DNA of 64,000 nt, from the NCBI GenBank assembly GCA_963514005.1, contig OY740808.1:2046001-2110000 (forward strand). Reading direction: 5' to 3'. The notes beneath the pieces were generated by a model. That model was not told the DNA's origin, ran no database searches, and saw nothing but the letters and a program-made list of their open reading frames with translations. A program made the position numbers and the translations under genes. This DNA comes from Raja brachyura. Taxonomy: Eukaryota. Positions 4,350-49,370 of this stretch are shown here, one piece after another. Within the stretch, counting starts at the first letter, position 1. The number at the start of each line of letters is the position of its first letter.

Positions 4350-4428
4350 GAAACAAAAGGGTGGAGTAACTCAGCGAGTCAGACAGCATCTGAATGGATG
4401 ACGTTTCGGGTCGAGACCCTTCTTTCAA
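4350..4428 (-). mobile_element. Short PLE terminal fragment with degenerate hammerhead core
   Basis: GGAGTAACTCAGCG...GACGTTTCGGGTCGAGACCCTTCTTTCA is shared with the other PLE-end copies in the window. Confidence 0.7.
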
Positions 4429-4697
4429 TACAGCTACCAATGTCACAACCTGTTGGACTCAACCATACTTTCATTTTTTTGAACGAGACAATGCCCTCTT
4501 TAAACATTTTTTTTCCTCTTCAAGAAAAACTTAAAATACAAATATTCAGAAAATAAGGCCCATTTGCCTTATTGGAATTAGTCCAGTTATGACATAATGC
4601 TACTATTCCAACATTTTAATCAAAATAATATTGTGGGATAATTTAGCATATAATGCAATCCTGTACAAAATATATAGAATTTGGTGCTGAGGTAGGA

Positions 4698-5370
4698 TTG
4701 TGTAGGAAGGAACAGCAGATGCTGGTTTATACCGAAGATAGATACAAAATGCTGGAGTAACTCAGCGGGACAGGCAGCATCTCTGGAGAGAAGGAATGGG
4801 TGACTTTTTTGGTCGCGACCATCCTTCAGACTGGGAGGAGGAGATACTGAGATAAGGAAGTGTAAGATGTGAGAACGAGACATCAAAGAGGGTGGAGATC
4901 AAGGTAAATGTAGAATAGATAATTGTTGGCTAGGAAAATGTAACTCAGATTCAGATTCAGATTCAGATTCAATTTTAATTGTCATTGTCAGTGTACAGTA
5001 CAGAGACAACGAAATGCATAACAACAAAGCCATCAGAGATAAAATGTAATCGGGGACAGTCAGACTGGTTAGAGAACTGGGAAGGATGAGGGATGGAGAG
5101 ACAGGGAAAGCAAGGGTTACTTGAAGTTAGAGAAGGCAATATTCATACCGCTGGTGTGTAAGCTGCCCATGCAAAATATAGGTACTGTTCCTCCAATTTG
5201 CACTGGACCTCACTGTGACACTGAAAGAGGCCCAAGACACAGAGATTAGTGTGGGAATGGGAGGGAAGTTAAAGTGTTTAACAAACAGGAGATCAGGTAG
5301 GTTTAGGCGTACTGAGCGGAGATGTTCAGTGAAATGATCGCCGAGACTGCGCTTGGTCTCATCGATTGTG
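4698..5370 (-). mobile_element. Penelope-like element 3' fragment (GIY-YIG endonuclease C-terminal remnant + terminal repeat)
   Basis: ORF 5127-5450 contains IDETKRSLGDHFTEHLRSV..D...KHFN, resembling the PLE GIY-YIG YIGETKRRLGDRFAEH motif. The shared PLE terminus CCAGCATCTGCTGTTCCTTCCTACACA is present on the minus strand. Confidence 0.8.
4946..5018 (-). mobile_element. Rex1/Babar-type 3' tail nested in the PLE fragment
   Basis: On the minus strand, TGACAATTAAAA followed by an (ATCTGA)n tail. Confidence 0.6.
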
Positions 5371-5549
5371 GTTAGGATTGGGCAGGGTGATTGATGGTGA
5401 AAAGGCTGTTCTTGAACCTTTAGGTGATGGTTCTCAAGCTTCTGTACCACCTTCCCGATGGTAGCAACAAGATGAATGTGTGGCCGTACTCAAGATGGAC
5501 CAGGCCATGGTCACCATTTGCTGCAGCCTCCTCCATTCTTGGGCATTAT

Positions 5550-5835
5550 TTTAAACTTTAGAGCTACAGTGCAGAAACAGGCCCTTCGGTCCAACGAGTC
5601 CGTGCCAACCAGCGGTCACCCCATATACTAATGCTATCTTACACAGTAGGGACAATTTACAAAATTACTGAAGCCAATTGACCTACAACTTGTACGTCTT
5701 TGGGATGTGGGAGGAAACCGGAGCACCCAAAAAAACCCATGTGGTCACAGGGAGAACATTCGTACAGAAAGCATCCATAGTCAGGATCGAACTTGGGTTT
5801 CTAGAACTGCAAGGCAGTAACTGTACAACTGCACT
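5550..5835 (-). mobile_element. tRNA-derived V-SINE (HE1-like) with CR1-derived tail
   Basis: V-domain core TGTGGGAGGAAACCGGAGCACCC, B-box-like GGATCGAAC, and CR1-like tail GAAACAGGCCCTTCGG. Confidence 0.85.
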
Positions 5836-7404
5836 ATTCAGGTTATCAAAGCAGGCCATTCAGTACGCTTTTCACCGTACACCTGTAGATGTTCGGTGAC
5901 TGTCCGAATATTCTTGATCTTCTGAGGAAGTAGAATTTTCTTTGTGATGGCATTAATATGCTGGGGCAAATAAATTGAGGCGCATCTATAACAAATAAAT
6001 GAAGGCATATAGGTTTAAATAGCAAACATTTCGTAGGATTTTGATCCTTCAACTCTCAGCCAACCAGCTACTAAACTGATATTTAGTTTAGTTTTATTTC
6101 ATAAGATGGAATTAACAACAGTTTAATTGGAAGGTGAATATGCCAATAAAGTGTTTTACCTCGTATGATTGATATCTAGCAGATTAGATTGGCCTTTGGA
6201 ATACACTGATAAAATTACAAAGCAAACAATGTTGATTGCCGTTTAAACAGTGATATTGGAGACTAGCTATTTAATCATCTTTACAATGTTCAAATTAAAA
6301 TGTTATTTCTCATAATATAGGGAATATAGATGCTGAGTAGAAATCCAGTTATAAACTGCATTTTGAAAGCATTTCAGTAGAGCAATGCACCACTGGAAAG
6401 ATTTAATTGGGTAACTTGACAACATTTATAATTGTATTTGTTAAACAATACTATTTGAAATCGTGTAGAACACTGAGGTCTTTTCACAAAAGATGAATAT
6501 TCAAATCTGTCCAACAGACATTACTGGCTCTTGTGTAGACTATGGTTGATTTCAGCAGCAGCACGATTAGGCCATGTACCACTTGAGCCTGTTGCGCCGT
6601 TGAGTAAAATGATGGTTGGTCCAATCATTTTCTTCATCTCCAAAGCTATGAAATATATTGCAGTTATGTAAGTCTGCATCCTGTAACCTGGCCAAGAAGC
6701 ATCAAACTTCAAGACAGGATCTGTCTTAATGGCACCTGAATAGTTTAAAGCACATAAGGAATTAACTACCATTTTTGAATCATTATTACTCCTGCACTAA
6801 TCTCTGGTTTATATAGCCTTAATGTTAGTGTGGAAATAACATACTAGAAAATTGCATTTTTCACTTACGGTGAATGGTGAGAAACTTGGAAGCGGAATAC
6901 CATAAAATAACATAATGTTTCATTGTGATGCATTCAGTTACGTAATTAAATAATATTAATCCATTACAGAATGTTTGCCAAGCACTGAAAAAGTATAAAA
7001 ACATTCACATACATTTAAATTAGTTGGATATATGCCAATATTTGTTACAGTTTCAACATCTTCAGGAGAAGGGGAAAGAAAATTTGAATACGAAGAGATT
7101 TTTTTGACAAATCGCCTCCAAACTAATAATATTAACAGATGAAAGCTAGATGTTTCCTTGACATTTTTTTGTGAAAGGGCAAGATTTGGGAATTAAACTA
7201 TTAACCGACTGTAAGTTTAATACTAATAATGTGGTAATTTGAGAACTGTCAGTTAGAGGAGCACAGCATCTGCAAATTTGACAGTCCAATGATAAAATTG
7301 CTTGATGCTGTCAAGCCGTCCGGGGGGAAATGACCCAACTATTTAAGCTTCATTTATCGCTGTTTATCCATTTTATGTTAAACATCATTGAAATAAATGA
7401 TCTG

Positions 7405-7550
7405 AGAGCCATTCTGTTCTTTGTGGGAGCTTGCTGTGTACAATTTTTGGCTGCACATTTCTATGCAACTGACAATACAATAAATTGGTTTTAAACGCTT
7501 TTAGAATATCCAGTGATCATGAATGAACGCTGTACTTATTTGTATTTGTA
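7405..7550 (+). mobile_element. Ancient Deu-domain SINE 3' remnant (SacSINE1/AmnSINE1-like)
   Basis: TGTGGGAGCTTGCTGTGTACAATTTTTGGCTGC...ATTGGTTTTAAACGCTTT resembles the DeuSINE 3' region. Confidence 0.55.
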
Positions 7551-8020
7551 CTTATTTTTCCAGTTAATCCTTATAAAATCAATGTAAGGCCTCCCGATGG
7601 CCCACTGGTTGATGCATAATTGCCTTTGTTTGCATCACAAGTAAGCAACCCATCCTCCACATCACTTCCCATCTTATAGTATTTCTGTTTTTGATCTCCT
7701 GATGACTTCTGTTTGCAGTACTTGAGTCACAGTAGCACTGACCACCATTGTTACTCCATTTTAACATGATATATTTGACTAATTTTGTCGTTTCACCCAG
7801 TTCATGGATTAAGCGTATCTTGGATGTTTGGTTTTCTTGATCTCTCATTCAAGATTTTGATGATATGCCACCCATTAACCTTTGCCTGTACCGTTCTTTC
7901 CTGCACTCATTCTCCTTGATTTCGGCCAAACAACCAGATTCTTCTTAAGGAATCAGAATATTCTATATCCAAGTGCATATATGTTGAAATGTGTTTATAA
8001 GTATATCCACAAAGTATTGT

Positions 8021-8199
8021 TTAAGAAAGAACTGCAGATGCTGGAAAAATTGAAGGTAGACAAACATGCTTGAGAAACTCAGCAGGTGAGGCAGCATCTA
8101 TGGAGAGAAGGAATAGGTGACGTTTTGGGTTTAGACCTATTCCTTCTCTCCATAGATGCTGTCTCACCTGCTGAGTTTCTCAAGCATTTTTGTCTACTT
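8021..8199. mobile_element. Fold-back PLE-end mini-element with 15-bp target-site duplication
   Basis: ~65-bp inverted arms (~8053-8118 and ~8135-8200). Direct repeat TCCACAAAGTATTGT at 8006-8020 and 8200-8214. Confidence 0.85.
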
Positions 8200-8713
8200 T
8201 CCACAAAGTATTGTCTATTCACAAAATATTGGACAGTTTCTCCCTTTTTAGTACGTGATGTCTTGCTTGGGTTTTTGCTGTGACATTCATAACTTCAGCA
8301 TTTCTACTCTACGCACCTTTATATGCCACATTAGCCAAAGAGCAACAGGTTTTCAACATCAAAATAGCATTTCTAAATACTAATTATAAATCTAATATTA
8401 AAGTAGGTATATTACATTATGATTGGATATATAATATCCAAATATATATAATGTAATGGGTATAATTTTAACTTATTGAGGTGCCTTGAGTTGCCTTAGG
8501 ATCAATAAGCTTTCATTCAGCAATGCTACTTTTTGAACATTCTCTATTTTGGAATATTTGGCTTTTCATTGGTTTGTGGATTGATATTTTTGATAAATGT
8601 ACCACCCATTATCCCAGGAAAGTTACAGGTGTAGTTCTATTTTTTCTATATTTTATTTTCATTTCATTGTAAAATAATCCATGTAGAATTGGCCAGATAC
8701 TTAAGAAGAAATA

Positions 8714-8985
8714 TGCCTCACAGTGCCACAGACCCAGGTTCAATCCTGACCTCGGGTGCTTTGTGGAGTTTGCACGTTTTCCCTGTGACCATGTGCGTTT
8801 CCTTTAGGTTCTCCGGTTTCCTCCCACATCCAAAGGTATGTAGGTTAATTGGCTTTTGTAAATTGCCCCTAGGGTGTAGGGAGTGGATGAGAAAGTGGGA
8901 ATATATAGAACTCGTGTGAATGGGTGATCGATGGCCAGCATGGACTCGGTGGGCAATAGGGCCTGTTTCCGTGGTGTTTCTCTAA
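8714..8985 (+). mobile_element. tRNA-derived V-SINE (HE1-like)
   Basis: B-box GGTTCAATCC, V-domain TCCGGTTTCCTCCCACA, and CR1-like tail GGGCCTGTTTCCGTG. Confidence 0.85.
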
Positions 8986-10367
8986 CTAATCTTATCCCCA
9001 TGTGACCGGAACTAGGCGATAAAATTAGCCTTATCGTCTCTTGATTCCAAAAAGGAAGCACACAGCATTATAGCAAACTAACAACTTTGGCACTCCAAGT
9101 CTGTTAGGACATTCAGCGTCTTTGGACAAGTCTGAGATTTTCTATGGTCGATAGCCGAAAATTCTGTTTGAGTGCTGGCCACAATGTGCAAGATATAGAC
9201 AATTTGTAAACCTGCAAATTATTAAAAACTTTACAAAATTTTCATTCAATAGACAAGTTTCAGAATTTGAAAAAAAATGTAGATTACACAAATTTAGCAT
9301 TTGGATGTAAACAGCTATAGAATGTAGGAGCAGTTTCAATCATTTTGCATATTCACTGCATGTGGATTATTTTAGGATTTGTGTCTCATCAGTCCTTTCA
9401 GTTATTGTTAAATATTTTTGAAGTTAGTCATTATATTGGATCACAAAGTTTTGATATCAAGTTTTAAAACATGATTAATTTGCCATAATTATCCAGTAAA
9501 ATAGTCTGTAACATTTTTAATTTTAAACAAAAGACCACATTTTATTTTTTGAAAATGCTACAAAATAATTAAATACCTGCTGAGTTCCATAATAAGTGTA
9601 GCATTTATTTTTTATACAGCGATGTATAATTATGCATGAAAAATATCTGCGAAAAACACAAATGCAGTCAGTTCTTCACTGTTTATAAACGGATTCTCTT
9701 GGAAGAGAATATTGCATCTACAAATTAAGAATGATATATAATATGAAATGACCCAAATTGTGCAGTTCAATGAAATTCACAGGAGTTGCCTATTCCAGTA
9801 GGAATAGATTCATATTCCTAAATGAACATCCAAACTCTAGAGCTTCCTTCGGGATATGGAGATTTAAAGCACAGTGACCTAGTTTACTAGAATCATGCAC
9901 TTGCTGATAGAAAAAAATATCAAATGCTGTTTGAAAGATCAAAAACTACTTTTTTTCTTTACAACCAGGAAAACTTAAAAGAATGTCAAATTTGACTGTA
10001 GTTTTGAAGTCAGTGGCAAGGAATCATCTTGCAAACAGTTGGTAGATGTGCTGTCTAAATGTTTGAAATGTAACTTTGATGCATGGGAGGTTACTGACAT
10101 GCTAATCCTTTCTTCCTTACCTACTCACAATTTTAAAAAAAACCTCTGGACCATTGTTTCACAATAACATGGCTACAAATGAGTAGGGAAAGGGGTGAAA
10201 AGTATGGTCCGTAGGGTGGGAGGAGGAGCAGAAAACTGTTGAAGTGCTTTGAAAATTCTTGAAGCATGAAAGGAGTGACAAAGAGAGAATGACAATAGCA
10301 AGAACCAATCTGAGAGAGGCCCACCCATTCTCCCACATCCAGAGAGAGTGGTAAAGAAGGCGAGTGG

Positions 10368-10945
10368 AATGCATCGATCAGGACATTGAGTGTTAGAGCT
10401 AAGAGGTTAAGTTGCAGCTTTATAAAACTTTGGTTAGGCCCCCATTTGGAGTATTATGTGCAGTCCTGGTTCCTCCATTACACAAAGGTGTGCAGGATAT
10501 GGAGAGGGTTCAGACGAGGTTTGCCAGGATGCTGTTTGGATTAAAGCTATTAACCATAAGGAGAGGTTGCACAAAGTTGGATTGTTTTCTCTGGAGCATC
10601 GCAGGCTGTGTGGAGAACAAATAGAAGTATGTAAAATTACAAGAGGCTTAGATGGGATAAACAGTCATAATCTTTGTGCTCAGAGGGGAAATGTCAAAGT
10701 CGAAAAGGCGTAGTTTTGAGGTGAGGGGCGTAGTTTAAAGGAGATTTGCAGGGTAAGGTTTTTTGTACAGACTGGTGGGTTCCTGGAATGTGCTGTCAGT
10801 GGTGGTGATGGAAGCAGATATGTAAATGGCATTTAAGATATTTTTAGATAGGCACATGAATGTTTGTAGATCGTGATCATATGCCGGCAGAAGGGATTAA
10901 TTTAATAAGGCATCATGTTCAGCTTAGACATTGATGGCTCTAGGG
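10368..10945 (+). mobile_element. Old CR1 LINE 3' fragment
   Basis: LQLYKTLVRP, MERVQTRFARML, ERLHKVGLFSLE and IEVCKITRGLD occur in shifting frames. Confidence 0.85.
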
Positions 10946-11119
10946 TGGGTGCTCTTTTATACTTTTACTAAGACAGAAGACTTCAGCCTTTGTGGTACCT
11001 GCCTCCTCAGACAGCAATCCCATCAGTCCTATTATCCCTCCTTGTTTCCCTGCAGCCCTGCAATTTATTCTCTCTCACACATGCTATCATCTCCGCTTTG
11101 ATTCATTTTGCCATTAGTC

Positions 11120-11360
11120 TACATTAAGGGGTAATTTACAAAGGACCGTGAGTGAGAATTTAAAATGTCAACATCGCTTTTAATGCATCTATCAAAATGT
11201 CTTTTGGAATGTTGGGGGAAACCAGAACATCCAGAGGCTATTCGAACAGTGCAGAAAGAATGTGCAAACTCCACACAGATGGCACCCGAGCTCAGGACCA
11301 AACCTATGTCCCTGGAGCGGTGGGCAGCAGCATTAACTGTTGCAGCGCTCTACTGCCCAT
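11120..11360 (-). mobile_element. Degenerate V-SINE
   Basis: GGAATGTTGGGGGAAACCAGAACATCC, TGTGCAAACTCCACACAGA and the tRNA-like head GGCAGCAGCATTAACTG. Confidence 0.75.
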
Positions 11361-11784
11361 AGCTGTTCTAGCTTTCTCTCTTTATTTACATATTGAGCTT
11401 GCATGTGTTACTCTCCATCTGCAGAAGCAGTTCCATACCTGCAGAGTTTTGGAACTTAGTGAGGGCATCCTCTTTCTCTCTAAGCATCTCTTTCAAAAAT
11501 CTGGGATGTAGGTTATTGGATCTGAAATTTATCAATTTTCATTTTCACAAATGTCTTGTAGTATTGTTGTTACTGATGTCCTTCACTTCCTCATTCTCAC
11601 CAGGCTTTTGATACCTGGCAGTTTTTTTTGTATCTCCTTCTGTGAAGACCGACACAAAGGATTTGTTTTCAATAACAAAAGTATTTGTTTTTAATATAGT
11701 GTGTCACATCATGAGAGATCTATTCTAACTTGACATTAATGTATCAACATCTCATATTTTTCTTATATTTTCTTATGTTGTAGG

Positions 11785-16179: not shown

Positions 16180-16300
16180 TATCAAGCTTTTGATATCACG
16201 GGTCAAACAGCATCTGTGTAAAAAATGGGCAGACGGTGTTTCGAGTCTGGACACTTCTTCAGATTGACATTTTTGATGGTCCCGACCTGAAAGGTGAAGC
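16180..16300. mobile_element. Degenerate PLE-end remnant with two opposed hammerhead-like cores
   Basis: GTTTCGAGTCTGGACACTTCTTCAGA (minus) followed by TGATGGTCCCGACCTGAAA (plus). Confidence 0.45.
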
Positions 16301-17569
16301 TTCCCATTAATTAAAGGTGTTAGTTGGCAAGTAGCTTCCTCTGCAGAATCTCTGGAAATATTGAGATCTCTAAATATAACTTGAGTAAACAATATTTAAG
16401 AATCCTATCCTCAGTAGGAATATAGGAATAATTGTACCACACTAATGTCATGGAAGGATGTGGGAAACATGAATAACTAGATGAATGTCATGAGCTTTTT
16501 CTTATTTCCTCTCTACTCTCCTCATGTGAATACTGCATTTAAATCTGGTTTGTTGAATATAAAAATCAGAAAACACTGCAGATGTTGAAAAACTGAAACT
16601 AAAACAAAAAATGGTGAAAACACTCAGCAGGTCAGACCACATCAGTAAAGAGTGAAACAGAGCTTATGTTTCAGAATGAAAATCATTACTATGGGGTTGG
16701 AAGTGTTTGTATCATTGTTGGAATATTGTTGGGCTGTGCCATGCAGTCCTTCAAATGCAATGGTTCCTTGTAGCTGACATGGAATTATAAACTAATAGAA
16801 AATTTGTAATTCTGAAGTGTTGAACATGTGCATTTGAGAACATATTTAACATATTTGTTCATGTCAATCTATTACAACTTTTTTAAACCTAAACAGTTTT
16901 GCATACAGCACTTTTTATTCTTTTATCTTCCTGACCATATTTAATTGTACTTAACATTTTAAGTGATAACGCACATAATCAAGAAGGTCTCTTCAATGAT
17001 TTTCTAATCATTTTTAATCATAGTTATTAATCCAATTGCTCGCCTGAAGTTTTCCACTCAAAGGCGGCACTGCATGAAATTTGACATGTTTTGGCGCTGC
17101 CCTAATTAGTGAAGCAACAATCATGTGAAGAGGAGAAGTTGACAAATAAAATGAAATGCTGGACGTCTGTTGCTTTCCATCCCTTACAAATGTTCTGACA
17201 AACTAGTTAATCTTCATCCAACATCAAAAACAAAACTGAAAATGTAAAAGAAAATATGAGCTCCATTTTTCAGGTCTATATCTATAATACACTGAAGACA
17301 AATTTAATCTACGGTCATGAACATTAACTGTGCAGAAACATTGGCTGAAGGTTTTATTCAGTTCTGTACATCATTTCTATCCAACAAGTTTAATGAATCT
17401 GAAAAGTCTACAAAGAGTGCAGCTGGCAGATGCTACTCTTGCATTTATCTCAAATCCTCCAGTCTGAGTAACAACCACACCATAACTCTGATATCTATCA
17501 CTACCACCTCTTACTATGTTGCCACTGTCATTTTTATTCCATGAATTCATCCACAGTCATGTTATGTTC

Positions 17570-18083: not shown

Positions 18084-20932
18084 CATAGAAACATAGAAAC
18101 ATAGAAAATAGGTGCAGGAGTAGGCCATTCGGCCCTTCGAGCCTGCACCGCCATTCAATGTGATCATGGCTGATCATCCAACTCAGTATCCCGTACCTGC
18201 CTTCTCTCCATACCCCCTGATCCCTTTAGCCACAAGTGCCACATCTAACGCCCTCTTAAATATAGCCAATGAACTGGCCTCAACTACCTTCTGTGGCAGA
18301 GAATTCCAGAGACTCACCACTCTCTGTGTAAAGAATGTTTTCCTCATTTCGGTCCTAAAGGAATTCCCCCTTATCCTTAGACTGTGACCCCTTGTTCTGG
18401 ACTCCCCCAACATCGGGAACAATCTTCCAGCATCTAGCTTGTCCAACCCCTTAAGAATTTTGTAGGTTTCTATAAGATCCCCCCTCAATCTTCTAAATTC
18501 CATCGAGTACAAACCGAGTCTATCCAATCTTTCCTCATATGAAAGTCCTGACATCCCAGGAATCAGTCTGGTGAATCTTCTCTGTACCCCCTCTATGGCA
18601 AGGATGTCTTTCCTCAGATTTGGAGACCAAAACTGTACGCAGTACTCCAGGTGTGGCCTCACCAAAACCCTGTACAACTGCAGTAGAACCTCCCTGCTCC
18701 TATACTCAAATCCTTTCGCTATGAATGCTAACATACCATTTGCTTTCTTCACTGCCTGCTGCACCTGCATGCCTACTTTCAATGACTGGTGTACCATGAC
18801 ACCCAGGTCTCGTTGCATCTCCCCGTTACCTAATCTGCCACCATTCAGATAATAGTCTACCCTCATGTTTTTGCCACCAAAGTGGATAACCTCACATTTA
18901 TCCACATTGTACTGCATCTGCCATGCATCTGCCCATTCACTCAGCCTATCCAAATCACCCTGCAGCCTCCAAGCATCCTCCTCACACCTAACTATACCCC
19001 CCAGCTTGGTATCATCTGCAAATTTGGAGATGTTGCATTGAATTCCCTCGTCCAAATCATTAATATATATTGTAAATAGCTGGGGTCCCAGCACTGAGCC
19101 TTGCGGCACCCCACTAGTCACTGCCTGCCATTCTGAAAAGGACCCGTTTACTCCTACCCTTTGCCTCCTGTCTGCTAGCCAGTTCTCTATCCACATCAAT
19201 ACTGAACCCCCAATACCGTGTGCTTTAAGTTTGTATGCTAATCTCTTATGCGGGACCTTGTCGAAAGCCTTCTGAAAGTCTAGATATAACACATCCACTG
19301 GTTCTCCCTTATCCACTCTACTAGTTACCTCCTCGAAAAATTCTATCAGATTTGTCAGACATGATTTACCTTTCGTAAATCCATGCTGACTTTGTCCAAT
19401 GATTTCACCACTTTCCAAATGCGCTGCTATCCCATCTTTAATAACTGACTCTAGCAGTTTCCCCACTACCGATGTTAGACTAACTGGTCTGTAATTCCCC
19501 GCTTTCTCTCTCCCTCCTTTTTTAAAAAGTGGGGTTACATTAGCTACCCTCCAATCCTCAGGAACTACTCCAGAATCTAAGGAATTTTGAAAAATTATCA
19601 CTAATGCATCCACTATTTCTGTGGCTACCTCCTTGAGTACTCTGGGATGCAGACTATCTGGCCCTGGGGATTTATCGGCCTTCAATCCGTTCAATTTACC
19701 CAACACCACCTCCCGGCTAACCTGGATTTCACTCAGTTCCTCCATCTTATTTGACCCCCGTTCCACTGCTATTTCTGGCAGATTATTTATGTCTTCCTTA
19801 GTGAAGACAGAACCAAAGTAGTTATTCAATTGGTCTGCCATGTCCTTGTTCCCCATGATCAATTCACCTGTTTCTGACTGCAAGGGACCAACATTTGTTT
19901 TAACTAGTCTCTTTCTCTTTACATATCTATAAAAACTTTTGCAGTCAGTTTTTATGTTCCCTGCCAGTTTCCTTTCATAATCTATTTTCCCTTTCCTAAT
20001 TAAGCCCTTTGTCCTCCTCTGCTGGATTCTGAATTTCTCCCAGTCCTCCGGTAGGCTGCTTTTTCTGGCAAATTTGTATGCCTCATCTTTTGTTTTTATA
20101 CTATCCCTGATTTCCCTTGTTATCCATGGATGCACCACCTTCCCCGATTTATTCTTTTGCCAAACTGGTATGAACAACTTTTGTACTTCATCCATGCAGT
20201 CTTTAAATACCTTCCATTGCACATCCACTGTCAACCCTTTAAGAATCACCTGCCAGTCTATCTTGGCCAATTCACATCTCATACCTTCAAAGTTACCTTT
20301 GTTCAAGTTCAGAACCCTTGTTTCTGACTTAATTTTGTCACTCACCATCCTAATGAAGAACTCAACCATATTATGGTCACTCTTGCCCAAGGGGCCACGC
20401 ACAACAAGACTGCTAACTAACCCTTCCTCATTACTCAATACCCAGTCTAGAATAGCCTGCTCTCTCGTTGGTTCCTCCACATGTTGGTTGAGAAAACTAT
20501 CCCGCATACATTCCAGGAAATCCTCTTCCTCAGCACCCCTGCCAATTTGATTCACCCAATCTACATGCAGATTGAAGTCACCCATTATAACCGTGTTACC
20601 CTTGTTGCACGCATTTCTAATTTCCTGTTTGATGCCATCCCCAACTCCAATACTACTGTTAGGTGGCCTGTACACAGTTCCCACTAGCGTTTTCTGCCCC
20701 TTAGAGTTTCGCAGCTCTACCCATATCGATTCCACATCCTCCACGCTAATGTCCTTCCTTTCTATTGCATTAATCTCCTCTCTCACCAGCAACGCTACCC
20801 CACCTCCTTTTCCTTTTCGTCTATCCCTCCTGAATATTGAATATCCCTGGATGTTCAGCTCCCAGCCTTGGTCATCCTGGAGCCAAGTCTCCGTGATTCC
20901 AACTATAGCAACTATAGCAACTATAACTATAG
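18084..20932 (-). mobile_element. Young, 5'-truncated CR1-clade LINE with uninterrupted ORF2
   Basis: (TTTCTATG)n 3' microsatellite at 18084-18107, conserved 3' hairpin region GGCCGAATGGCC, and an open APE+RT frame. No ORF1 or 5' UTR. Confidence 0.95.
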
Positions 20933-21074
20933 CATTCAACCTGTACATGCTGACCAAATTGTCTAAGTGTTTGTCCCACTTGCCTGTGACTGGCCCATAT
21001 CGCTCCAAATCTTGATTATCCACACACTGGTCCAAGAGTCTTTTAAATGTCGTAATTATACCCGCCTCTGCCAC
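18183..21074 (-). CDS. CR1 ORF2: AP endonuclease + reverse transcriptase (963 aa; first ~55 aa chimeric)
   Basis: APE motifs ITETW, GGGVALL, YRPP, MGDFN and SDH. RT motifs SPGPD, NYRPVSLTS, QHGF, LDFQKAFD, GVPQGSVLGP and FADD. CR1 C-terminal TRGH. The N-terminal APE NARS-type motif is absent. Confidence 0.9.
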   Translation of the reverse strand: MAEAGIITTFKRLLDQCVDNQDLERYGPVTGKWDKHLDNLVSMYRLNAIVIVAIVAIVGITETWLQDDQGWELNIQGYSIFRRDRRKGKGGGVALLVREEINAIERKDISVEDVESIWVELRNSKGQKTLVGTVYRPPNSSIGVGDGIKQEIRNACNKGNTVIMGDFNLHVDWVNQIGRGAEEEDFLECMRDSFLNQHVEEPTREQAILDWVLSNEEGLVSSLVVRGPLGKSDHNMVEFFIRMVSDKIKSETRVLNLNKGNFEGMRCELAKIDWQVILKGLTVDVQWKVFKDCMDEVQKLFIPVWQKNKSGKVVHPWITREIRDSIKTKDEAYKFARKSSLPEDWEKFRIQQRRTKGLIRKGKIDYERKLAGNIKTDCKSFYRYVKRKRLVKTNVGPLQSETGELIMGNKDMADQLNNYFGSVFTKEDINNLPEIAVERGSNKMEELSEIQVSREVVLGKLNGLKADKSPGPDSLHPRVLKEVATEIVDALVIIFQNSLDSGVVPEDWRVANVTPLFKKGGREKAGNYRPVSLTSVVGKLLESVIKDGIAAHLESGEIIGQSQHGFTKGKSCLTNLIEFFEEVTSRVDKGEPVDVLYLDFQKAFDKVPHKRLAYKLKAHGIGGSVLMWIENWLADRRQRVGVNGSFSEWQAVTSGVPQGSVLGPQLFTIYINDLDEGIQCNISKFADDTKLGGIVRCEEDAWRLQGDLDRLSEWADAWQMQYNVDKCEVIHFGGKNMRVDYYLNGGRLGNGEMQRDLGVMVHQSLKVGMQVQQAVKKANGMLAFIAKGFEYRSREVLLQLYRVLVRPHLEYCVQFWSPNLRKDILAIEGVQRRFTRLIPGMSGLSYEERLDRLGLYSMEFRRLRGDLIETYKILKGLDKLDAGRLFPMLGESRTRGHSLRIRGNSFRTEMRKTFFTQRVVSLWNSLPQKVVEASSLAIFKRALDVALVAKGIRGYGEKAGTGY

Positions 21075-21914: not shown

Positions 21915-22195
21915 CCTCCATTGCCAGAGTGAGACCCAGCACCTCACATTTCGCTTCGGTAGTTTACATCCCAGCGGTATGAACATTGACTTCTCTAACT
22001 TTAGATAGCCCTTGCTTTCTCCTTCCTTCCCCTCCCCTTCCCAGCTCTCCCACAAAGCCTACTGTCTCCACCTCTTCCTTTCTTCCCCCACCGACATCAG
22101 TCTGAAGAAGGGTCTCGACCCGAAACGTCGCCCATTCATTCTCTCAATAGATGCTGCCTCACCCGCTGAGTTTCTCCAGCATTTTTTGTCTACCC
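21915..22195 (+). mobile_element. PLE 3' end (GIY-YIG C-terminal peptide + terminal repeat)
   Basis: Encodes QHLTFRFGSLHPSGMNIDFSNF, followed by a pyrimidine tract, hammerhead core and the shared PLE terminus. Confidence 0.85.
22098..22133 (+). ncRNA. Minimal type I hammerhead ribozyme motif
   Basis: CUGAAGA (22102-22108), extra A, stem II GGGU-CUCG-ACCC, then GAAAC-GUC (palindromic ACGU stem III, GUC cleavage triplet). Stem I is weak. Confidence 0.7.
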
Positions 22196-36505: not shown

Positions 36506-36509
36506 CCCA

Positions 36510-37320
36510 TCAGACTCCACATCCAACATGTCATTCCCTGACGTTTCCGCCACCTTCTATCACATTACACCAGTCACAACTTCCCATCCCCTTCGCAACT
36601 ATTTGCTTCACTCATCCCTCCCCACCCAAACCATCCCCTCCCCAGGTACTCTTCTCTGCAACAGCAGGAGATGTAACAGTTGTCCCTTTACCTCCTGACT
36701 AAACATAGACTAAGTGACCATCTCGCTTAGTCTGCCAGGACATACTGGATCTCCTGGTTGTTGACTATTTAAACTACCCATTCCTATACTGACCTTTCAG
36801 TCCTGGACCTCCTTCATTGTCAGAGTGAGGCCACAAGCAAGTAGAAAGAAGAGAACTTCTTATTTCACTTGGGGTGCTTGCAACCCAACGGTATGAACAT
36901 TGAATTCTCCAATTTTAGGTAACTTACCTACTAACACCTCCCTCCCCATTTGCACCCCATTTTCCATCTTCTCTTCCCTGTGTCCTATCTGTATGCACTT
37001 CCAATTCCCCTCTCCTCTCCCGATCCCCTTCCACCTATATTCCTTTTTCTGACTTCACATTTATGCTTCTTCTATCCTTATCTCTCACTTTTTGGTATTT
37101 TCATCTCTGGCCTTTGTCCATCCAGCTGCCGATCAATATTCTCTCTCACTTGTATTCATCCATCACTTGATAGCCTTTGTCCCATCCCAACCTCTCTTCC
37201 AGATTTCTCCTCACCAATTACAATTGATCTGCGGAAGGGTCTGACTCGAAATGGCTCTTAACCATGTTCTCCAGAGATGCTACTTGACCCACTGAGTTAC
37301 TCAAGCACTTTATATCTTTT
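36510..37320 (+). mobile_element. Decayed PLE 3' region (Zn-finger/GIY-YIG remnant + terminal repeat)
   Basis: CNSRRCNSCPF (CxxxxCxxC linker of PLEs), FHLGCLQPNGMNIEFSNF, and a degenerate hammerhead/terminus at ~37228-37315. Confidence 0.75.
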
Positions 37321-37599: not shown

Positions 37600-37752
37600 C
37601 TGTAAGAAAAAACTGCAGAAGCTGGTTTAAATGGAAGGTAGACATAAAATGCTGGAGTAACTCAGCGGGAAAGGCAGCATCTCTAGAGAAAAGCAATGGG
37701 TGATGTTGCTGCTTGTCCTGCTGAGTTACTCCAGCATTTTGTGTCTACCTTT
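37600..37752. mobile_element. Fold-back PLE-end mini-element
   Basis: AAGGTAGACATAAAATGCTGGAGTAACTCAGC is inverted against GCTGAGTTACTCCAGCATTTTGTGTCTACCTT. Confidence 0.8.
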
Positions 37753-40748: not shown

Positions 40749-40927
40749 GAAGATAGACACAAAAAGCTGGAGTAACGCAGCGGGTCAGAGAGCATCTTTG
40801 GAGCAAAGGAATAGGTGACATTTTGGGTTGAGACACGTGAAGAAGAATCTGTCTGACCCACTGAGTTACTCCAGCTTTTTGTGTCTATCTTCGGTTTAAA
40901 CCAGCATCTGCAGTTCCTTCCTACACA
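40749..40927. mobile_element. Fold-back PLE-end mini-element
   Basis: GAAGATAGACACAAAAAGCTGGAGTAAC is inverted against GTTACTCCAGCTTTTTGTGTCTATCTTC. Flanks are TTTTTCACGTG and TTTTTCATGTG. Confidence 0.8.
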
Positions 40928-41041
40928 TTTTTTCATGTGTATAGCTTAGGTCCATCAAGTTGATTGTAGTATCCTTGCAGCTACCTTTGATGTTAGCTAC
41001 TCTCAATCGAGACGTGGATGGAAGACTTTCATTGTCTAGAT

Positions 41042-41391: not shown

Positions 41392-43582
41392 GTCTAGATG
41401 GCTGACCTTCAACACGCAGGTGATTTATTGAAGATACGGTGAATGTGCCTGCAAGTGATTCCAACTCTGTAAGTGTGGGAAGGATGTCAGAGGAAAGGAT
41501 AAAAAAAAACAAAAAAAATCTAAGTGTGAAATTTAGGCTATCTAATCAAAGATCCCAGAATGTTATTGTAATTTGGGAAATCTCAACTTTGATCTTTCTC
41601 TCCAGTATTGAAACTTTAATGTTAGATTTTTGTGTGTGGAGAATATGAAGAGGATCGTAATAATGTCATAATTAATATAATGTAGTAATGGAGATAATCC
41701 TTGTAGCATGAGGACATTTTTATCTGTGTAATTGTAGTTAAGGGAATAGCTCAGTTTCACATTTGCAGATGACATTTTGCAAAATGCCTATTTCCCACTT
41801 ACTCGTTAATATTTTTCACCACTTTCAGCTGAAAATGATGTTCTCGTCATAGCTCTCCTACAGGATGGACTAGTTGCTCTATATGATGTTGTTGTGATGT
41901 TAAAATATTATGTTCACCACTCATCAAGAAATTTGTTATCAGTCAGTAGTTTGAGTTGCTCCTCAGTTCCTGTTTGTCCCTGATGAATGCACTCTTTTGG
42001 TGAAACTGACCTCCTCCAGTAGACCACTGTGACATTGATACAGCTCTTCTAATGATGAGAAATTGAGTTATAATGGCAGTTGTTGAACCGTAGGCTGCAA
42101 ATAAATGTGCTTTAGAGAACTGCCATTGGTGCCTCTAAATGGATTATATATTTTGTTTGGTAATCCAATATTTAATACCGGCCTAATCTCGAGTGGTTAT
42201 CTCTATTCCATTCTATGACAAGTGCCCTGATTTTTCTTCCCTCAAATAGACTGGTACACTGTCCCTAGTTTCATTCTTTGTTACTTATTCTTGACAATAT
42301 TATTTTATTGTCTATCTGTCCTGATTCCCCTTTGTTATATATTCATTCCTGTTCTTTGGTTTCTAACAACTGTAGTCCAGTGCAGGCATTGCCTGCTCTC
42401 TTTGTAAAAAAAAAAGCTTTTACTGTTTCTATTGATCTTAAATGCTGTAAGATGCAAATTACTATGCTTGACAGGGTTTGAGGCATTTTATCATCAATGG
42501 AAAGTAATTATCCCCTGCTACACTGATATTGGATTGTTAAGCTCGAGGATAATGCGTTGTGCAAGTCCTCAGAAACTGGTCCACCCCTGGGATTTGTGTG
42601 AATATGATGGATAGAAGGAAAGGAGAATGGCTGACTTGGGATCCTCTGGGACACATCACAACATGGGGGCTGTTCATTTTTCTAAAATTTATTTGGCAAA
42701 GGCACTACTGAAACTCATTTTTCCAGATCTTGCTGGTGCTATGATTGCTGAGTTATGTTTTTGAGTGGTTAGGTCACAGTTTCTACCTGGTTATTTCAGT
42801 TCAGTCTATTCTTAAGTATCAAAGTGTTGTTCATGAAAATAACCCACTTTGCATTTCTCATTAATATTTTGTTCTGGGCAGTTTCTCCAATAACATTTTT
42901 AAGTTGCATTTTTGTGTATTGGTTTATTGTTACCTGTATCATGATACAGTAAAATATTTGGAGGGACTGCTATTGATTTTTAACTTTAGTTATGCATCAG
43001 ATAACCTCAAAGATCTCTGGTTAAACTGTTGAAATTACAACTGGAAGGCCAGAACTTGAATCTATTTTTGACAGATAGATTGGCCCCGGTTTTTGGCTGC
43101 TTGTTATTTATGTTTTACAGAATTGCACTACTTTATCATAATGAAGCACTCCAGCTCCAGGAGAAAAGAAACTAATGGGATCAAAGTTGATCACCAAGAA
43201 ATATATATTTTTGGGCAGTTTGCAGGGACTGATAAACCAGACCATAATAGATCAAGGAGCTGGATAGCTGTGATTGAGATTTTTTTTGAGCCAATAATCT
43301 GAGTCAAAATTATCAATGAAAAACATGAATTAATAAATGACACCCTATGAAGGTTAGGTTAAGAAGATCACAGTTAGCTATCTTGACAGCTCTTTGCCGA
43401 AGTAAGTTGGTGGGTTGATGATGGGCAGGACAATTGATACTGTATGTGAACTTTCAAAGGGCATTAAGAAAGGACCGCAATAGACATATGGCAGCTAAAG
43501 AATAAACCAGAGAAGGGTGGCATACTGTACTCTGGGAGGAAGAATGAAGCGTTAGCATGTAATCTAAGTTGTATAATTGTAA

Positions 43583-43748
43583 TGTGTAGGTAGGAACTGC
43601 AGATGCTAGTTTACACGGAAGATAGACACAAAATGCTGGAGTAACATAGCGGGACAGGCAGCACCTCAGGAGAGAAGGAATAGGTGATGTTTCAGGTCGA
43701 GACACTTCTTCAGACCAAAACGTTACCCATTCCTTCTCTCCAGAGATG
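43583..43748. mobile_element. PLE-end mini-element with partial fold-back and 12-bp TSD
   Basis: GTATAATTGTAA at 43571-43582 and 43749-43760. The inversion junction falls inside the hammerhead core. Confidence 0.85.
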
Positions 43749-43759
43749 GTATAATTGTA

Positions 43760-44890
43760 AAATGGGTGCAGAAACACTGGTGGTGTGCTATACAAATCTT
43801 TGAAAATGGCGAGAAAAGTGGAAAAGGTGTGTAAAAACAAAAAGAGGAATTATTGCTTTCATAAACAGATGCAAGGCAGCTATACTAAACTTTTAAAAAT
43901 CACTGAATATGCCTCACCAGTTGGAGAAGAGGCCACCTCTGGAAATCACAATTAGGAAGAATATTGAAACCTTGGAGAGGGTGCAGAGGAGAATTACTTT
44001 GGTGGTATAAGTGATTCAGGACCAATTACATCGAGACTAGAAATTCAGCTTTTCATCTTGGAACTTACATAGAAAATTTTGGGGGGAAATGAATAAAGAT
44101 GAAAAAGCATTAAAAGTTTTCATTGTATATGTGCTGAGAAATTGTTTCCAGATACCACATGAGAACTGTCAGTAATCATGAAACAGATTTTAGCTAACTG
44201 AGTAAATGCCAGAGTTTAGATTTTTAACAACAAATTGAATTATAAATTATATATTTTCTTTGAAAGTGTGTTGGAAGCAAATTCAAATTTGAGCTGTCCA
44301 TTAATCACCATTAGAGGAGGTTTACACACTTTTTTTCAGTCAGCTTATCAATATCCATCACAGCCAAAGACTATCTTAGCCTAAGACAACTGTCAACCAC
44401 CAATTGAATATCTTCTGCAAATTTAACAATCATGTCTCCTATACTGATTATATAACAAACAGTAAAGATCACAACGGCAATTACTGCAGAACACCACAAG
44501 TCACAAAAATATAATCACAAAAACAACCCTTGACCATCCCTCTCTGCCTTTTATCACCATACCAATGTTGCCAAATTGCCCTGGATCAGATGGGCTCGAA
44601 CCTTTCGGACACGTCTCTCACTAGGGACCTTATCAAAGGTTCATGGAGGCTACCTCAAGTCCATTACCCTCATTGACATGCTTAGTTATGGCTCCAAACA
44701 TTTTCATCTAAATTCAACAAAGCAAAGCTGAATATCCTTGATTTAATATCTGCCTACCCAAGTGCCGATTAATATTGTCCTCAGAATTGTTTCCAATAAT
44801 TTCCTCACCACTGATGTTAGACTCATTAGCCTGTAATTACCTAGCTGCTCCCCTGTCTTGCTTGAATAAAAATGCCATATTTTATGCCCT
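43760..44890. mobile_element. Two very old CR1 fragments (plus ~43760-44285; minus ~44390-44890)
   Basis: Degenerate TTGGAGAGGGTGCAGAGGAGA (LERVQRR) and CACCACTGATGTTAGACTCATTAGCCTGTAATT (NYRLMSLTSVV on the minus strand). Confidence 0.6.
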
Positions 44891-45289
44891 CATGAATGGT
44901 ATCATTAGCTTGGGTAGCACGTAAAGTAGTTTTTCACTATCTTGGTACGTGACAATTTAAAAAAAACATGGAACTTAGTCTGTGTTTGAAGAGATAAAGA
45001 CTTAACAGTCAATAATAATTTTGTTAAAACACTTCCCCTTTTCTTGCAGAGATGCCAATGTATATTGCAGTTGCTGATTGATCATTTATATCAGATCATT
45101 TATCTTGGTCAGTTGTGGCTGCCAGTGATTTTCTTCCATCTTTATACCATGTTTTCCAGCTGAGTATGTTGACAATTTCACAATTTGTTCCTATTTGTTA
45201 AAGGTGAGGCTACATGTACATCTGTAAACTACAATGATTTTGTAAACTGCATACATTAAATACTTACATTTTACATTATTTCCAGAATA

Positions 45290-45763
45290 AGCATGCAGGT
45301 ACAGGGATGGTGGGTCTGACATATGATGAAAGAATGGATTGACTGGGCTTGCATTCACTGGAATTTAGAAGAATGAAAGGGGATCTTATAGAAGCATATG
45401 TAATTCTTAAGGGATTGGACAGGCTAGATGCAGGAAAAATGTTCCCCATGTTGGAGTCCAGAACCAGGGGTCACCGTTTAAGAATAAGGGGTAGGCCATT
45501 TAGGACTGTTGAGGAAAAACCTTTTCACCCAGAGAGTTGTGAATCCGTGGAATTCTCTGCCACAGAAGGCAATGGAGGCCAATTCACTGGATGTTTTCAA
45601 GAGAGAGTTAGATTTAGCTCTTAGGGCTAACGGAATCAAGGGATATGGGGAAACAGCAGGAACGGGGTACTGATTTTGGATGATCAGCCATGATCATATT
45701 GAATGGCGGTACTGGGTCGAAGGGCTGAATGACCTACTCCTGCAACTATTTTCTATGTTTCTA
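45290..45763 (+). mobile_element. CR1 LINE 3' fragment
   Basis: SLEFRRMKGDLIEAYVILKGLDRLDAGKMFPMLESRTRGH, with a TTTTCTATGTTTCTA tail. Confidence 0.92.
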
Positions 45764-46244
45764 ATACTTGGAAAAGATTGTGAGAAAAATGCACAGCATT
45801 AAAATTACATTAATATTCTAACACTACACATTTGTCTAACTTCTTCTGAAAACATTTTAAAATTTAATGTAGGATTTACTACACTAAATAAATTATGTAA
45901 TTTAAGATCCAAATTAAATTCTGTTTCTGTTACTGACCTGTTTCCATTGTGTGGTGGAGCCAATTTTTGAACTCGTGCACAATAAACAATCTGCTGAATT
46001 GAATTTATCCCATAATTCAGTGATGCCACAGTAAATTAAAAATCACAGAGTTCCATTATGGCTCCATTCGTAAATACAATTATGTCACTGAGCCATGAGA
46101 ATTTGCTTTCTAACGCAAGTTACATTATCTAGAGTGGCAAGTAAGACACTAAGTAGATTTTATTGCACTGATCAGGAGTACGTTCCAATCTGATCTATCC
46201 CATGTGTTTATAAAAAAAACAAAACGCTTTTACAGTTTAAAATC

Positions 46245-46550
46245 AAACTCAGTTGGTAGAAATGTCCCTTCTGAAATGATGGGTTATGAGATCCAATCCT
46301 GCTCCAGTGAATGCATTGCAAAATAATTTAAAGCAACATTTTAAAATACGCTAAATCAAGGCCCCATCTCGCTGCTTTATTACAAGATCCCGAGGTGGTG
46401 TACATCCCTTTGTTAAGGGCGCTATAAAAATGCCATTCTTTTCACTTCTGGTTTGTGGGATCTTCTCATGCACACTGGTTGCATTGTTTATGTGCACAGT
46501 GTACTTGACTGCAATTCAAGGATAATGTATTGGTGGAACACCTCATGTCC
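46245..46550 (+). mobile_element. Ancient Deu-domain SINE remnant
   Basis: tRNA-like head, TAAATCAAGGCCCCATCT..AAGATCCC (Deu domain-like), AGGGCGCTATAAAAATGC and TGTGGGATCTT 3' pieces. Confidence 0.5.
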
Positions 46551-47389
46551 TGCAAATCTGATGCATCATATCAACACAAGGTGGTCTCATTTCTTTCCGT
46601 ACTCAATTCACTCAGGAATTTATTTCATTAATAAACAAATTAATCGGTGAAGTTCAATGTAAGGGTTGGAGCTGACATGAGAAAACACTATTGATTGTGA
46701 CATTGGCTAAACTGCTGAGTAAGAAGAATAACAAAAATATTAGTGCCTTTTTCCATGTATGTTAATAGAATTTGATGTTATATTGTGAACTAATTCAGCA
46801 TTATGCTGCTGTGCAGAACCTCATTAACAAACATGTGATTGAAGCTTCAAAGTGCAGGTTTAGCTGTTTTATAATTAAATAAAATGGACGCATTAGTTCC
46901 GTGCCTGAATTTTCTGGAATAAAACAGATGCATAAATTAGTGCCTAATTAGTACAGATAATAAGGAAGATAACTAGAATGGCTTATTTGCTCAGCATGAT
47001 TATTACAGTATGATTGTTATAATATAAAATGATATGTTGCACAATAATTGACAAACCTTAATCCTCACTCATCAAGATGAAACTGCAACCCATGAGACAC
47101 TTGGTGAGTTGTAATGTCAATCATTCTGTTTTATGTTCCATTTAAATTTGAAAGCACTGAATCAATGTAGGTATTTCAATGTATTGAAATAGCTAATTCA
47201 GCCTAAGCTTAAACTAATAGACTTGTCATTCTACTGGTCACAATGCTATTACAAAACAGAATAAAATCTGATATTATACAATAGCGTTTTACATTTATTA
47301 ACTGCCTTTTTATAGCAGGAAATGAGCAAGGGTAAGCATGAGATCTCATTGAAACTGCTCTGGTAAATCTGGTAACTGTTAGAGCACTG

Positions 47390-47957
47390 GAGAGTTTTGC
47401 AGAACAAAGATCTGGGAGTACAGGTGCATGGCTCACTGAAAATAGCAAGTAAGGTGGACAGTGTGGTGAAGGAGGTGTTTGGCATGTTTGCCTTCAAAAG
47501 CAAGGGAATTGAGTACTAACGTTTACACATCATGATGCAGCTGTGCAAGTCATTGGTGAGACCACAGTTGGAGTACTGTATGCAGTTCTAGTTGCCTATC
47601 TACAGGAGGGATGTCATTAGGTTGGAAAGGGTGCAGAAAAGATTACTAGGTCGCTTCCTAGACTTGTGGATGAGCTAAAGGGAGTAGTTGGATAGGTTAA
47701 GACTTTTTTCTTTGGAGACATTTAAAGGGATCTCAGGGCAACCTTTTTACTCCGAGAGTAGTCAATATCTGAAATTAGTTGCAAGAGGAATCTACAGAAG
47801 TGGATGCAATTATGGCTTTAAAAGACATTTGGACAGATACATGGATGGGAAGGGGCCAGAGGGCATTGAACCGAATGGGACCAGCTTAGTATGCCAATTT
47901 GGTGGGCATGGACCGATGAGCCTCTCTGTATGCGGTTTAGCTCTATGACTCTGTAAC
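47390..47957 (+). mobile_element. Old CR1 3' fragment
   Basis: MMQLCKSLVRPQLEYCMQF, LDRLRLFSLE and FKRHLDRYMDGKG, with a CTATGACTCTG tail. Confidence 0.85.
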
Positions 47958-47984
47958 ATCTCACAGAGGAGGACATCTGCCATC

Positions 47985-48362
47985 CTTGTCCTGGTGGTGT
48001 GAGACCTCAGGCTTCTGTATCTCCTGCCTGATGGGAGCACCAAGAAGAGGGCCTGGCCCAGATGGTACGGATCCTTGATGACAGATACTGCCGCCTTCAG
48101 GCAAGACATCATGTAGATGCTTTAGATCGTGGGAAGTACTGCACTGAGATACCACTCTGTAGTATCTTGCATTGCCTTGTGTTGGAACTTGCTGGACCAG
48201 GCCATGTTGCAACCAGTCAGGATACTTTCTGCAGTGCATCTGTAGAGGTTTGTTGGGAGTATTCGGTGGCATTCTGAATCTCTTCTGAGAAAGTCGAGGT
48301 GCTGGTGTGCCACCTTCTTGGTTACATCTATGTGCTGGGCCCAGGAACTTGAAGCTGCTGAA
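47985..48362 (-). mobile_element. Rex1/Babar LINE 3' fragment
   Basis: TNLYRCTAESILTGC..AW and CLKAAVSVIKDPYHLGQALFLVLPSGRRYRSL. Confidence 0.85.
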
Positions 48363-48639
48363 CCTCAGCCTTCCAATGAAATCACTAATGATTCACCATT
48401 CTCTGCAACAAAAAAAATCCTACATGTCTCAATCTTAAATGGCTGCCCCTTATTAAGTAACTAAATCCCCTCAATTCAGACTTTCACAAATGGCAACCTC
48501 TCAACATCTACACTATCATGTTCCTGAGGGTCTTGCAGACTTTAGTAAACTTATCCCTTATCTTCTAGACTCCAAATACCATTTCAAAATGTCCAATCTA
48601 TCTTATTGGTTCCATGAAATAGCAAAAAAAAAGAGGAAA

Positions 48640-49370
48640 TATTAGATGCAAAGAGGAGTTACATAAAGTTATATAAAGTGGCCGGTATAAGTAGCTTGGA
48701 TTGGCAGCAGTTTCGAATTTGGTAAAAACAGACCAAGGGAGATTGAGAGTGAAAATAGACTATGAAAGGGCAAGATGGAGTGTAAACACTTCTCTAAGTA
48801 AGTGTAAAGAAAAAGATGTGAAGACAATCATAGATCCCATTTTGGGAGAAATGGGAGAATATAGAATGGGGAACAAAGTAAGAGCAATACATTACACAAG
48901 ATAGACATTAAATGCTGGAGTAACTTAGCGGGACAGGCAGCATCTCTGAAGAGAAGGAATGGGTAACGTTTCGGGTCGAGTCCCTTCTTCAGACTTTTCC
49001 TTCCTCTTTTCCTTCCTACCTAATACAGAAACATTACACAAATACTTTGATTCAGTCTTCCCAGAAAAAGACAAAATATAACTTCCAGGGAATGAATTTC
49101 CACTAGGAGTTTTGCCTGGCAATGTGAAGCCTTGTACCAGGAGTCACTGCTCAGGATATGTTTTATGACAATTAAATGAGAAGAAATTCCTTCATTCCAG
49201 CAGTAGAATTATCTACAACAGAAGACTGTAGAGTCGTCAAATATACTCAAGAAAGAGATAAATTTCCAGACACAAAAGGCGTCAAGGGATATGGTATTGA
49301 GGGAGATAATCAACCGTGATTGTATTGAATGACAGAACAGAACTCAAAAAACAAATGTCCTGCCATTTTC
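48640..49370 (+). mobile_element. Old internally deleted CR1 carrying a PLE-end insert
   Basis: KIDYE..., EMGEYRMGNK..., and KYFDSVF resumes after the insert. Decayed 3' end. Confidence 0.7.
48900..49030 (-). mobile_element. PLE-end mini-element with near-intact hammerhead core and 11-bp TSD
   Basis: Minus strand CUGAAGA-A-GGGACUCGACCC-GAAACGUUA (48961-48995). ACATTACACAA at 48889-48899 and 49031-49041. Confidence 0.85.

Follow-up and report, generated by a model that had tools for sequence, protein, structure and literature searches.

Minimal type I hammerhead ribozymes (min-HHRs) are known from metazoan Penelope-like elements (PLEs). The motif, its home in the PLE terminal repeats, the predominance of solitary truncated copies (thousands per genome) and the idea of action as a dimer were all presented by Cervera and De la Pena in 2014 (PMC4209133; statements on published systems refer to the parts of the cited papers that were available). 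In the green anole Poseidon element PAc (PMC11167929, Frangieh et al. 2024), the hammerhead lies at the junction of the pseudo-long terminal repeat (pLTR) and the open reading frame (ORF), both target strands are primed, two adjacent internal starts of reverse transcription give an optional tail, and uncut RNA is the main template. Neptune-type endonuclease-positive (EN+) PLEs (PMC8557442) have a single ORF with a reverse transcriptase (RT) plus a GIY-YIG domain at the C-terminus, a linker that carries a Cys motif, partial tandems, inverted 5′ copies, and a 30–40-bp tail at one end. An internal promoter is known in Drosophila virilis Penelope (PMC2377424), and a PLE origin has been argued for animal retrozymes (bioRxiv 10.64898/2026.07.22.740005). 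We analyzed a 64,000-nt stretch of the Raja brachyura genome (contig OY740808.1, positions 2,046,001–2,110,000 of the forward strand; hereafter the window) that contains dispersed copies of a PLE with such a hammerhead. The motif is of a known kind in an ordinary, very abundant element, and its value lies in the mechanism that can be read from the copy ends, which suggest that the shortest copies are run-off products of reverse transcription.

Positions in the element are numbered relative to the predicted cut site, so that the H of GUH is −1, the letter after it +1, and the C of CUGA −28. Exact copies of the core, CTGAAGA-A-GGGT(CTCG)ACCC-GAAAC-GTC, are present at 22102–22129 (+ strand; predicted cut after 22129) and 28363–28390 (− strand; a young subfamily), as an earlier note on this DNA had claimed. 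A third motif, given there as near-intact at 48961–48995 (−), has its core at 48965–48992 (−) with a single stem II mismatch and a GTT end. All of the core nucleotides (C3-U4-G5-A6-N7-G8-A9, G12-A13-A14, A15.1-U16.1, and H17) are present, and they are invariant in the majority sequences of all six copy clusters described below, except that H17 is C or U. The extra A after A9, the 4-bp stem II, and the loop-less ACGU stem III that had been described were all found. In line with the published min-HHRs, the extra nucleotide lies between positions 9 and 10.1, ahead of stem II, the G10.1–C11.1 pair is present, the palindromic 15.2–16.2 stem lacks loop 3, and the motif occupies a pLTR of a PLE. A difference lies in stem I, which the earlier note had not mentioned: only 2 bp are possible (U–G or U–A, then G–C), and the third position is an A/C mismatch. 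Stem I of min-HHRs has 4–5 bp, and the Schistosoma families have 7–8 bp in stem II and 4–5 bp in stem I; the published descriptor is relaxed for stem sizes (PMC4209133). When up to two mismatches were allowed, seven matches were found in the window (1.03 expected), a number reached by none of 100 shuffles. A profile built from 61 sampled motifs detected 19 pieces in the window, and no matches in the reversed sequence of the 1.33-Mb sample that served as a control. These pieces include the degenerate copies that had been proposed near 4400, 4800, 16240, 33540, 37230, and 43685; the one proposed near 57615 (+) was missed by the profile and is recognizable by eye only. The earlier note had also suggested a search with Hammerhead_1 models; cmscan of the window against Rfam gave 16 matches at E up to 5, none of them to a hammerhead family. 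The miRNA-like Rfam matches at 8.1 and 37.6 kb were rejected, as they are head-to-head PLE copies. The motif thus belongs to the published class of minimal type I hammerheads and lies in a PLE pLTR, and the original reading of its origin and type was right.

To identify the parent element, part of the ORF was used as a genome-wide query; many equal-scoring matches with long open frames were obtained, and 16 of these loci were examined. It contains a single 1192-aa ORF that starts from ATG, and it forms tandem units of 4051 bp. The ORF matches the Pfam families RVT_1 (E 2.5e-4) and, at its C-terminus, GIY-YIG (E 1.7e-3), and its RT–EN linker contains a C-x4-C-x2-C motif. No matches were obtained in a PDB sequence search with the parent ORF or in a Pfam search with four broken ORF pieces. 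Within the unit, the hammerhead is located about 250 nt past the stop codon and 136 nt ahead of the next ATG, whereas the PAc ORF starts inside the ribozyme. The 3′ ends of copies are fixed at two points, +66 or +102, in agreement with the pair of internal RT starts and the optional tail of PAc (PMC11167929). The single ORF with RT and C-terminal GIY-YIG, the tandem and partial tandem units, the inverted 5′ copies, and the optional 30–40-bp tail all agree with EN+ PLEs, and this is an abundant, young element of that kind. The Cys-rich linker is Neptune-like and unlike PAc (PMC11167929), and by this linker motif the element may be placed with Neptune (PMC8557442). The young element is present at one locus (L065/L066, G000:C2:3633000–3652800) as a tandem of three or more 4.05-kb units, and in this element a splice-donor-like AG/GTATG overlaps the parent ATG.

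The exact 27-mer of the motif occurs 53,803 times genome-wide, and its control 0 times. In a random sample of 133 stretches of 10 kb (1.33 Mb), left from 140 after the removal of seven that fell beyond their contigs, the profile gave 580 matches, and 61 intact cores were present, 46 of them with a full stem II. Extrapolation gives about 1.2 million fragments and about 93,000 motifs with full core and stem II, far above the copy numbers of the min-HHR PLEs in PMC4209133. With 19 pieces in 64 kb, the window has a lower density than the sample, and it is ordinary for this genome. About a million fragments record where the RT of this element starts and stops.

No 5′ ends of copies are mapped in the available parts of PMC4209133. 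Here, to keep the 5′ ends free of selection, the anchor for young copies was placed downstream of the cut site. The set comprised 86 copies, 43 from the random sample and 43 from other loci, including partner arms and the window copy at 28.4 kb. Thirty-four of them begin within the five positions from −32 to −28 and only one within the next 12 positions, −33 to −44 (p 2e-17). A further 22 begin at −27 to −9, 17 at −45 or beyond, and two at +16; none begins at +1, and 10 ends were unresolved. The figure for copies that extend upstream of −33 is from the sample and not genome-wide. In the window, three copies (33570, 43715, and 48995) have their 5′ ends at −30 or −31, and one locus that continues into the ORF likewise begins at −32. 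The length distribution, which the earlier note had singled out as informative, is thus not continuous: it consists of a spike and a smooth tail, and the short copies form a discrete class. It had been proposed that extreme 5′ truncation could produce the short copies. Long copies do end at scattered positions (−114 to −1753), and PLEs are known in print for heavy 5′ truncation, but a spike on a smooth tail means that random truncation alone fails as an explanation. The 5′ ends of the 86 copies refute it for the young subfamily, and we regard it as extremely improbable that the short copies are the mere end of a smooth truncation curve.

The most probable explanation, in which we have fairly good confidence, is that the short copies are run-off complementary DNAs (cDNAs): reverse transcription would begin within the RNA, at +66 or +102, and would run off the RNA 5′ end, predicted at about −31. 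The RT starts would lie in the 5′ untranslated region (UTR), and run-off would yield units of ∼95 or 133 nt. A transcript start at about −31 is likely from the DNA sequence. This position would be an RNA polymerase II (Pol II) start site with initiator (Inr), motif ten element (MTE)-like, and downstream promoter element (DPE)-like motifs that overlap the ribozyme in register. When A(−31) is taken as transcript +1, the Inr is matched at 5 of 6 positions, the MTE at 8 of 10, and the DPE at 4 of 5, all at the required spacing, and the revised MTE, CGANC, is matched exactly (consensuses from PMC5580651). The promoter score of A(−31) is the best of the 794 A positions in the unit and is equaled by 85 of 219,199 background A positions. 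The internal promoter of D. virilis Penelope is similar in that it is TATA-less and has an Inr and a DPE containing ACGT (PMC2377424). Most RNA templates would be uncut, as in PAc, and a small share (under 1%) would be cut by the ribozyme, probably with the help of the protein of the element. If this is true, the transcript start is placed on the ribozyme, tiny solo terminal repeats are explained without a separate short interspersed element (SINE), and the copy ends give an indirect sign that a minimal hammerhead of a PLE cuts in vivo, which was lacking in the 2014 paper and unseen in the 2024 RNA reads. Our literature search found no paper that puts the start site of a PLE on its hammerhead or that reads cleavage from genomic ends; most subscription papers were outside its scope, and the supplements of the 2014 and 2024 papers may bear on this. 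Of 24 sequence runs, all of them contigs and one on record as RNA, four were compared with the element: summed depth is 5- to 9-fold lower upstream of the motif in all four, and no pile-up of starts or ends was listed. The drop was not counted, as these runs may be DNA and the upstream sequence differs between subfamilies.

Several observations weigh against this explanation. The Pfam matches of the parent ORF fall under curated cut-offs, and the −31 start is a prediction from DNA sequence. The peak of 5′ ends is centered at −30/−29, one or two letters short of −31, and no consistent extra G, the signature of a cap, is seen: in only three of 23 short copies bounded by target-site duplications (TSDs) are the extra letters before the start just G or GG, or ending in GG, so a cap-G signature is not established. 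The MTE and DPE consensuses are those of Drosophila, and the choice of score was made once the edge had been seen. Transcription of D. virilis Penelope starts 46 nt ahead of an intron of 75 nt, the end of which maps to the hammerhead (PMC2377424), a layout different from the one predicted here, in which promoter motifs overlap the ribozyme. Tandem and long copies span −31, which requires read-through RNA or a template switch, and an antisense self-priming model has been published for head-to-head repeats.

The fixed 5′ edge could instead be a stall of the RT, a processing site, or a splice acceptor. In long copies, the upstream sequence is a tract of pyrimidines that ends in CAG, in many cases together with a word like CTGAC/CTAAC, and the off-center peak and the missing cap signature would also fit this alternative. 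However, short copies often retain G or AG ahead of the core and no common upstream exon is joined to them, which disfavors a splice acceptor, and the core-promoter match in register and the shape of the distribution, with a hard upstream edge and a downstream tail of shorter ends, speak against the alternative as a whole; we consider it unlikely. A different possibility, raised by the earlier note, is that the ribozyme-bearing terminus is mobilized as a unit of its own, i.e. an independent SINE- or retrozyme-like element with its own internal promoter that is mobilized in trans. The short copies have a discrete size and TSDs, they would include the predicted downstream promoter, non-autonomous PLE derivatives are known from the literature, and short tandem arrays exist (a 94-bp array at one sampled locus and 30 adjacent tandem matches). 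Of the 580 copies, 208 with good scores fell into six clusters (2.5–12% divergence, 11–82 copies each, sizes that limit the power of the comparison); the pyrimidine content upstream served to call a copy ‘long’ (background rate 4%). Every cluster, young or old, contains long, short, and head-to-head copies, and no diagnostic position separates long from short in any of the six (smallest p 0.024, with about 93 tests per cluster). In addition, the short copies stop at the RT start sites and therefore lack the downstream RNA needed by the related anole element (PMC11167929). The idea of a separately mobilized terminus is thus unsupported and, in our judgment, quite improbable; the parent element probably yields the tiny copies as short by-products.

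Animal non-LTR retrozymes (bioRxiv 10.64898/2026.07.22.740005) share a PLE derivation and a type I hammerhead with the copies described here, but retrozymes are tandem units, whereas the window copies are dispersed monomers or head-to-head pairs with no lineage of their own. No tandem hammerhead units were found in the window by profile search, and they are rare elsewhere. At locus L130 (G000:C30:3447240–3457239, about 6200–6560), a tandem array has a 94-bp period, with each unit beginning at the hammerhead. This array would satisfy the published retrozyme definition of two consecutive motif-bearing units, and it probably originated by repeated template jumps.

The core is identical in all six cluster majorities, and the variable sites among clusters are loop 2, one site in stem II (U–A to U–G), H17, which is C or U, and +1, where G and A alternate and each pairs with U. 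Among 269 low-scoring old matches that formed five clusters, the core is present in the majority of three, and the 5′ part is unreadable in two. Once inserted, copies decay neutrally, and they are unlikely to act as host ribozymes. Non-CpG core sites differ slightly less often than invariant downstream sites (3.5% vs 5.0%, p 0.049), but this was not taken as evidence of selection, since the core is A-rich, the matches were chosen by score, and the CpG sites of the core differ in 18–21% of inserted copies.

The head-to-head arrangement was frequent in the 1.33-Mb sample, with 91 head-to-head and 10 tail-to-tail pairs, and the tail was present on one arm only in 59 of 74 head-to-head pairs. Both features are already in print for PLEs. 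The pairs would arise by priming on both target strands, which has been demonstrated in vitro for the anole element (PMC11167929).

Whether the ribozyme cuts in the animal is a separate question. Published minimal motifs cut weakly as dimers (PMC4209133), and a minimal motif that cuts only with protein has been described (PMC11167929). A 5′ end at −31 implies a stem I of 2 bp. The predicted 5′ 212 nt show no folding advantage over shuffled sequences (z −0.51), and in a nearest-neighbor model the hammerhead fold is the best monomer structure in none of four window stretches. The double hammerhead dimer fold (−6.7 kcal/mol) is ∼15 kcal/mol worse than the best two-strand fold (−21.3 kcal/mol) in a model that is blind to core contacts. 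Genomic ends gave a different kind of information. Young copies preceded by three non-matching letters were counted genome-wide at five positions (the +1 anchor comprised 52,902 copies), giving 55 ends at −2, 47 at −1, 199 at +1, 115 at +3, and 125 at +6. Forty loci, all of the +1 class and from the first 51 of the 199, were read individually. Twenty-eight are true ends at +1, three join other parts of the element, eight are substitutions or small deletions, and one is an AAA insertion. The true ends include TSD-bounded copies, A-rich joints, pairs, and restarting arrays. When small-deletion triplets were removed by eye among the matches listed, at most 23 (−2), 19 (−1), ∼77 (+3), and 70 (+6) remained, compared with ∼110 independent loci at +1. 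The ends at +1 are rare (199 per 52,902), but about fivefold (range 4–7) above the upstream level and only about 1.5-fold above the downstream level. Pairs with both arms stopping at +1 numbered six in the first 100 matches; there was a single such pair at +3 and a single one at +6, and at −1 and −2 there were none. The step at +1 is a hint that a small share of the RNA, far less than 1% of copies, is cut; an RT stall or an uneven baseline may also be its cause. Judged from these genomic ends, ribozyme cleavage in vivo has about even odds. For PAc, the available parts of PMC11167929 report no RNA reads that end at the cut site, whereas here rare genomic copies do.

A more far-reaching picture would combine both parts: the first 31 letters of the RNA would be a Pol II core promoter in DNA and a minimal hammerhead in RNA, with a genomic fossil record of cutting in the animal that consists of copies, arrays, and pairs starting from the scissile bond, both arms being cut above chance, as in a protein-held dimer. 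We put this forward tentatively, as a possibility that is more doubtful than the run-off origin of the short copies. The three restarting arrays among the true ends at +1 (L281, L283, and L294) consist of 61–63-bp units without the ribozyme core and restart three or four times exactly at the predicted cut. Runs of A are joined straight to +1 at L308, L312, L304, and L303, which include the one AAA insertion at the cut site; these runs may come from template jumps to RNA ends with an A tail or from addition without a template. Insertions of one letter at the cut site were considered as a mark of re-ligation and rejected, as the three genome-wide matches are all duplications of the neighboring letter.

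Both intact-core copies in the window reach the ORF end and are about 260–290 and 450 bp long. The first (21937–22197, +) is a 5′-truncated copy with the ORF end, 3′ UTR, and hammerhead; it ends at +66 without a tail, its ORF-like letters may extend back to about 21905, and no TSD was found. The second (28297–28746, −) is a young copy that runs from −347 to +66 and has a small inverted piece of tail (28720–28749) and a 13-bp TSD (28284–28296/28747–28759). The short copies comprise 48898–48995 (−; −31 to +66, near-intact core with one stem II mismatch, 13-bp TSD with one mismatch), which is followed by 33 nt resembling a stuttered tail on the opposite strand; 33478–33570 (−; −31 to +62, with a core that has decayed and possibly an 8-bp TSD); 4348–4424 (−; −25 to +63, first core letters missing); and the old copy at 16199–16267 (−; −33 to +35). 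Head-to-head insertions with arms on both strands are located at 43583–43748 (a − arm from −30 to +102 with tail, a short + arm that begins in stem II, and a 12-bp TSD), 8020–8201 (a − arm with tail, a + arm without tail that begins at +1 to +3, the exact point being ambiguous owing to microhomology, and a 15-bp TSD), 40750–40928 (11-bp TSD with one mismatch), and 37601–37751 (without most of the core). Longer decayed copies are found at 4699–5366 (−; into the endonuclease region, with tail) and 36589–37317 (+; core decayed near 37230). Old related fragments lie at 16573–16674 (−; weak profile match, E 0.0013) and 52450–52531 (+; profile match), and an old head-to-head pair at 57475–57690 consists of a − arm with a weak profile match and a + arm with the decayed core near 57615. 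Among the 16 insertions searched for TSDs, exact duplications of 15, 13, and 12 bp were found at 8.0, 28.3–28.7, and 43.6 kb, and weaker ones at 40.75, 48.9, and 33.5 kb; the remaining 10, among them the copy at 22.1 kb, gave none. An exact 12-mer occurred in 0 of 150 random intervals. The proposal that many copies are only 90–200 bp long with TSDs of their own therefore holds in part: such short copies exist and some are TSD-flanked, but both intact copies are longer, and TSDs are clear in only three of the 16.

The earlier note had placed the 22.1-kb copy within a host pre-mRNA. No host gene was found on the + strand of the window, and 30 splice-bounded candidates were unconvincing; a short splice-bounded open frame at 60430–60483 (+) is a host exon candidate. 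Of the 281 unmasked window ORFs of at least 48 aa, 273 were compared with Pfam and gave two weak matches, both under the cut-off. Other mobile elements are also present. A 963-aa open frame at 18183–21074 (−), with endonuclease and RT Pfam matches, belongs to a nearly intact long interspersed element (LINE), which we take to be CR1-like, and further truncated copies of it are located near 38.1–39.2, 45.3–45.8, and 50.8–51.7 kb. A Tc1/mariner-type transposase fragment (HTH_Tnp_Tc3_2, E 6.8e-13) lies at 30618–31085 (−), and an 85-nt inverted pair (29812–29896/31301–31385) may represent its ends. Outside the window, an open frame beside a PLE copy (L019, 2153–2671, +) is presumably a RING and B-box (TRIM-like) exon.

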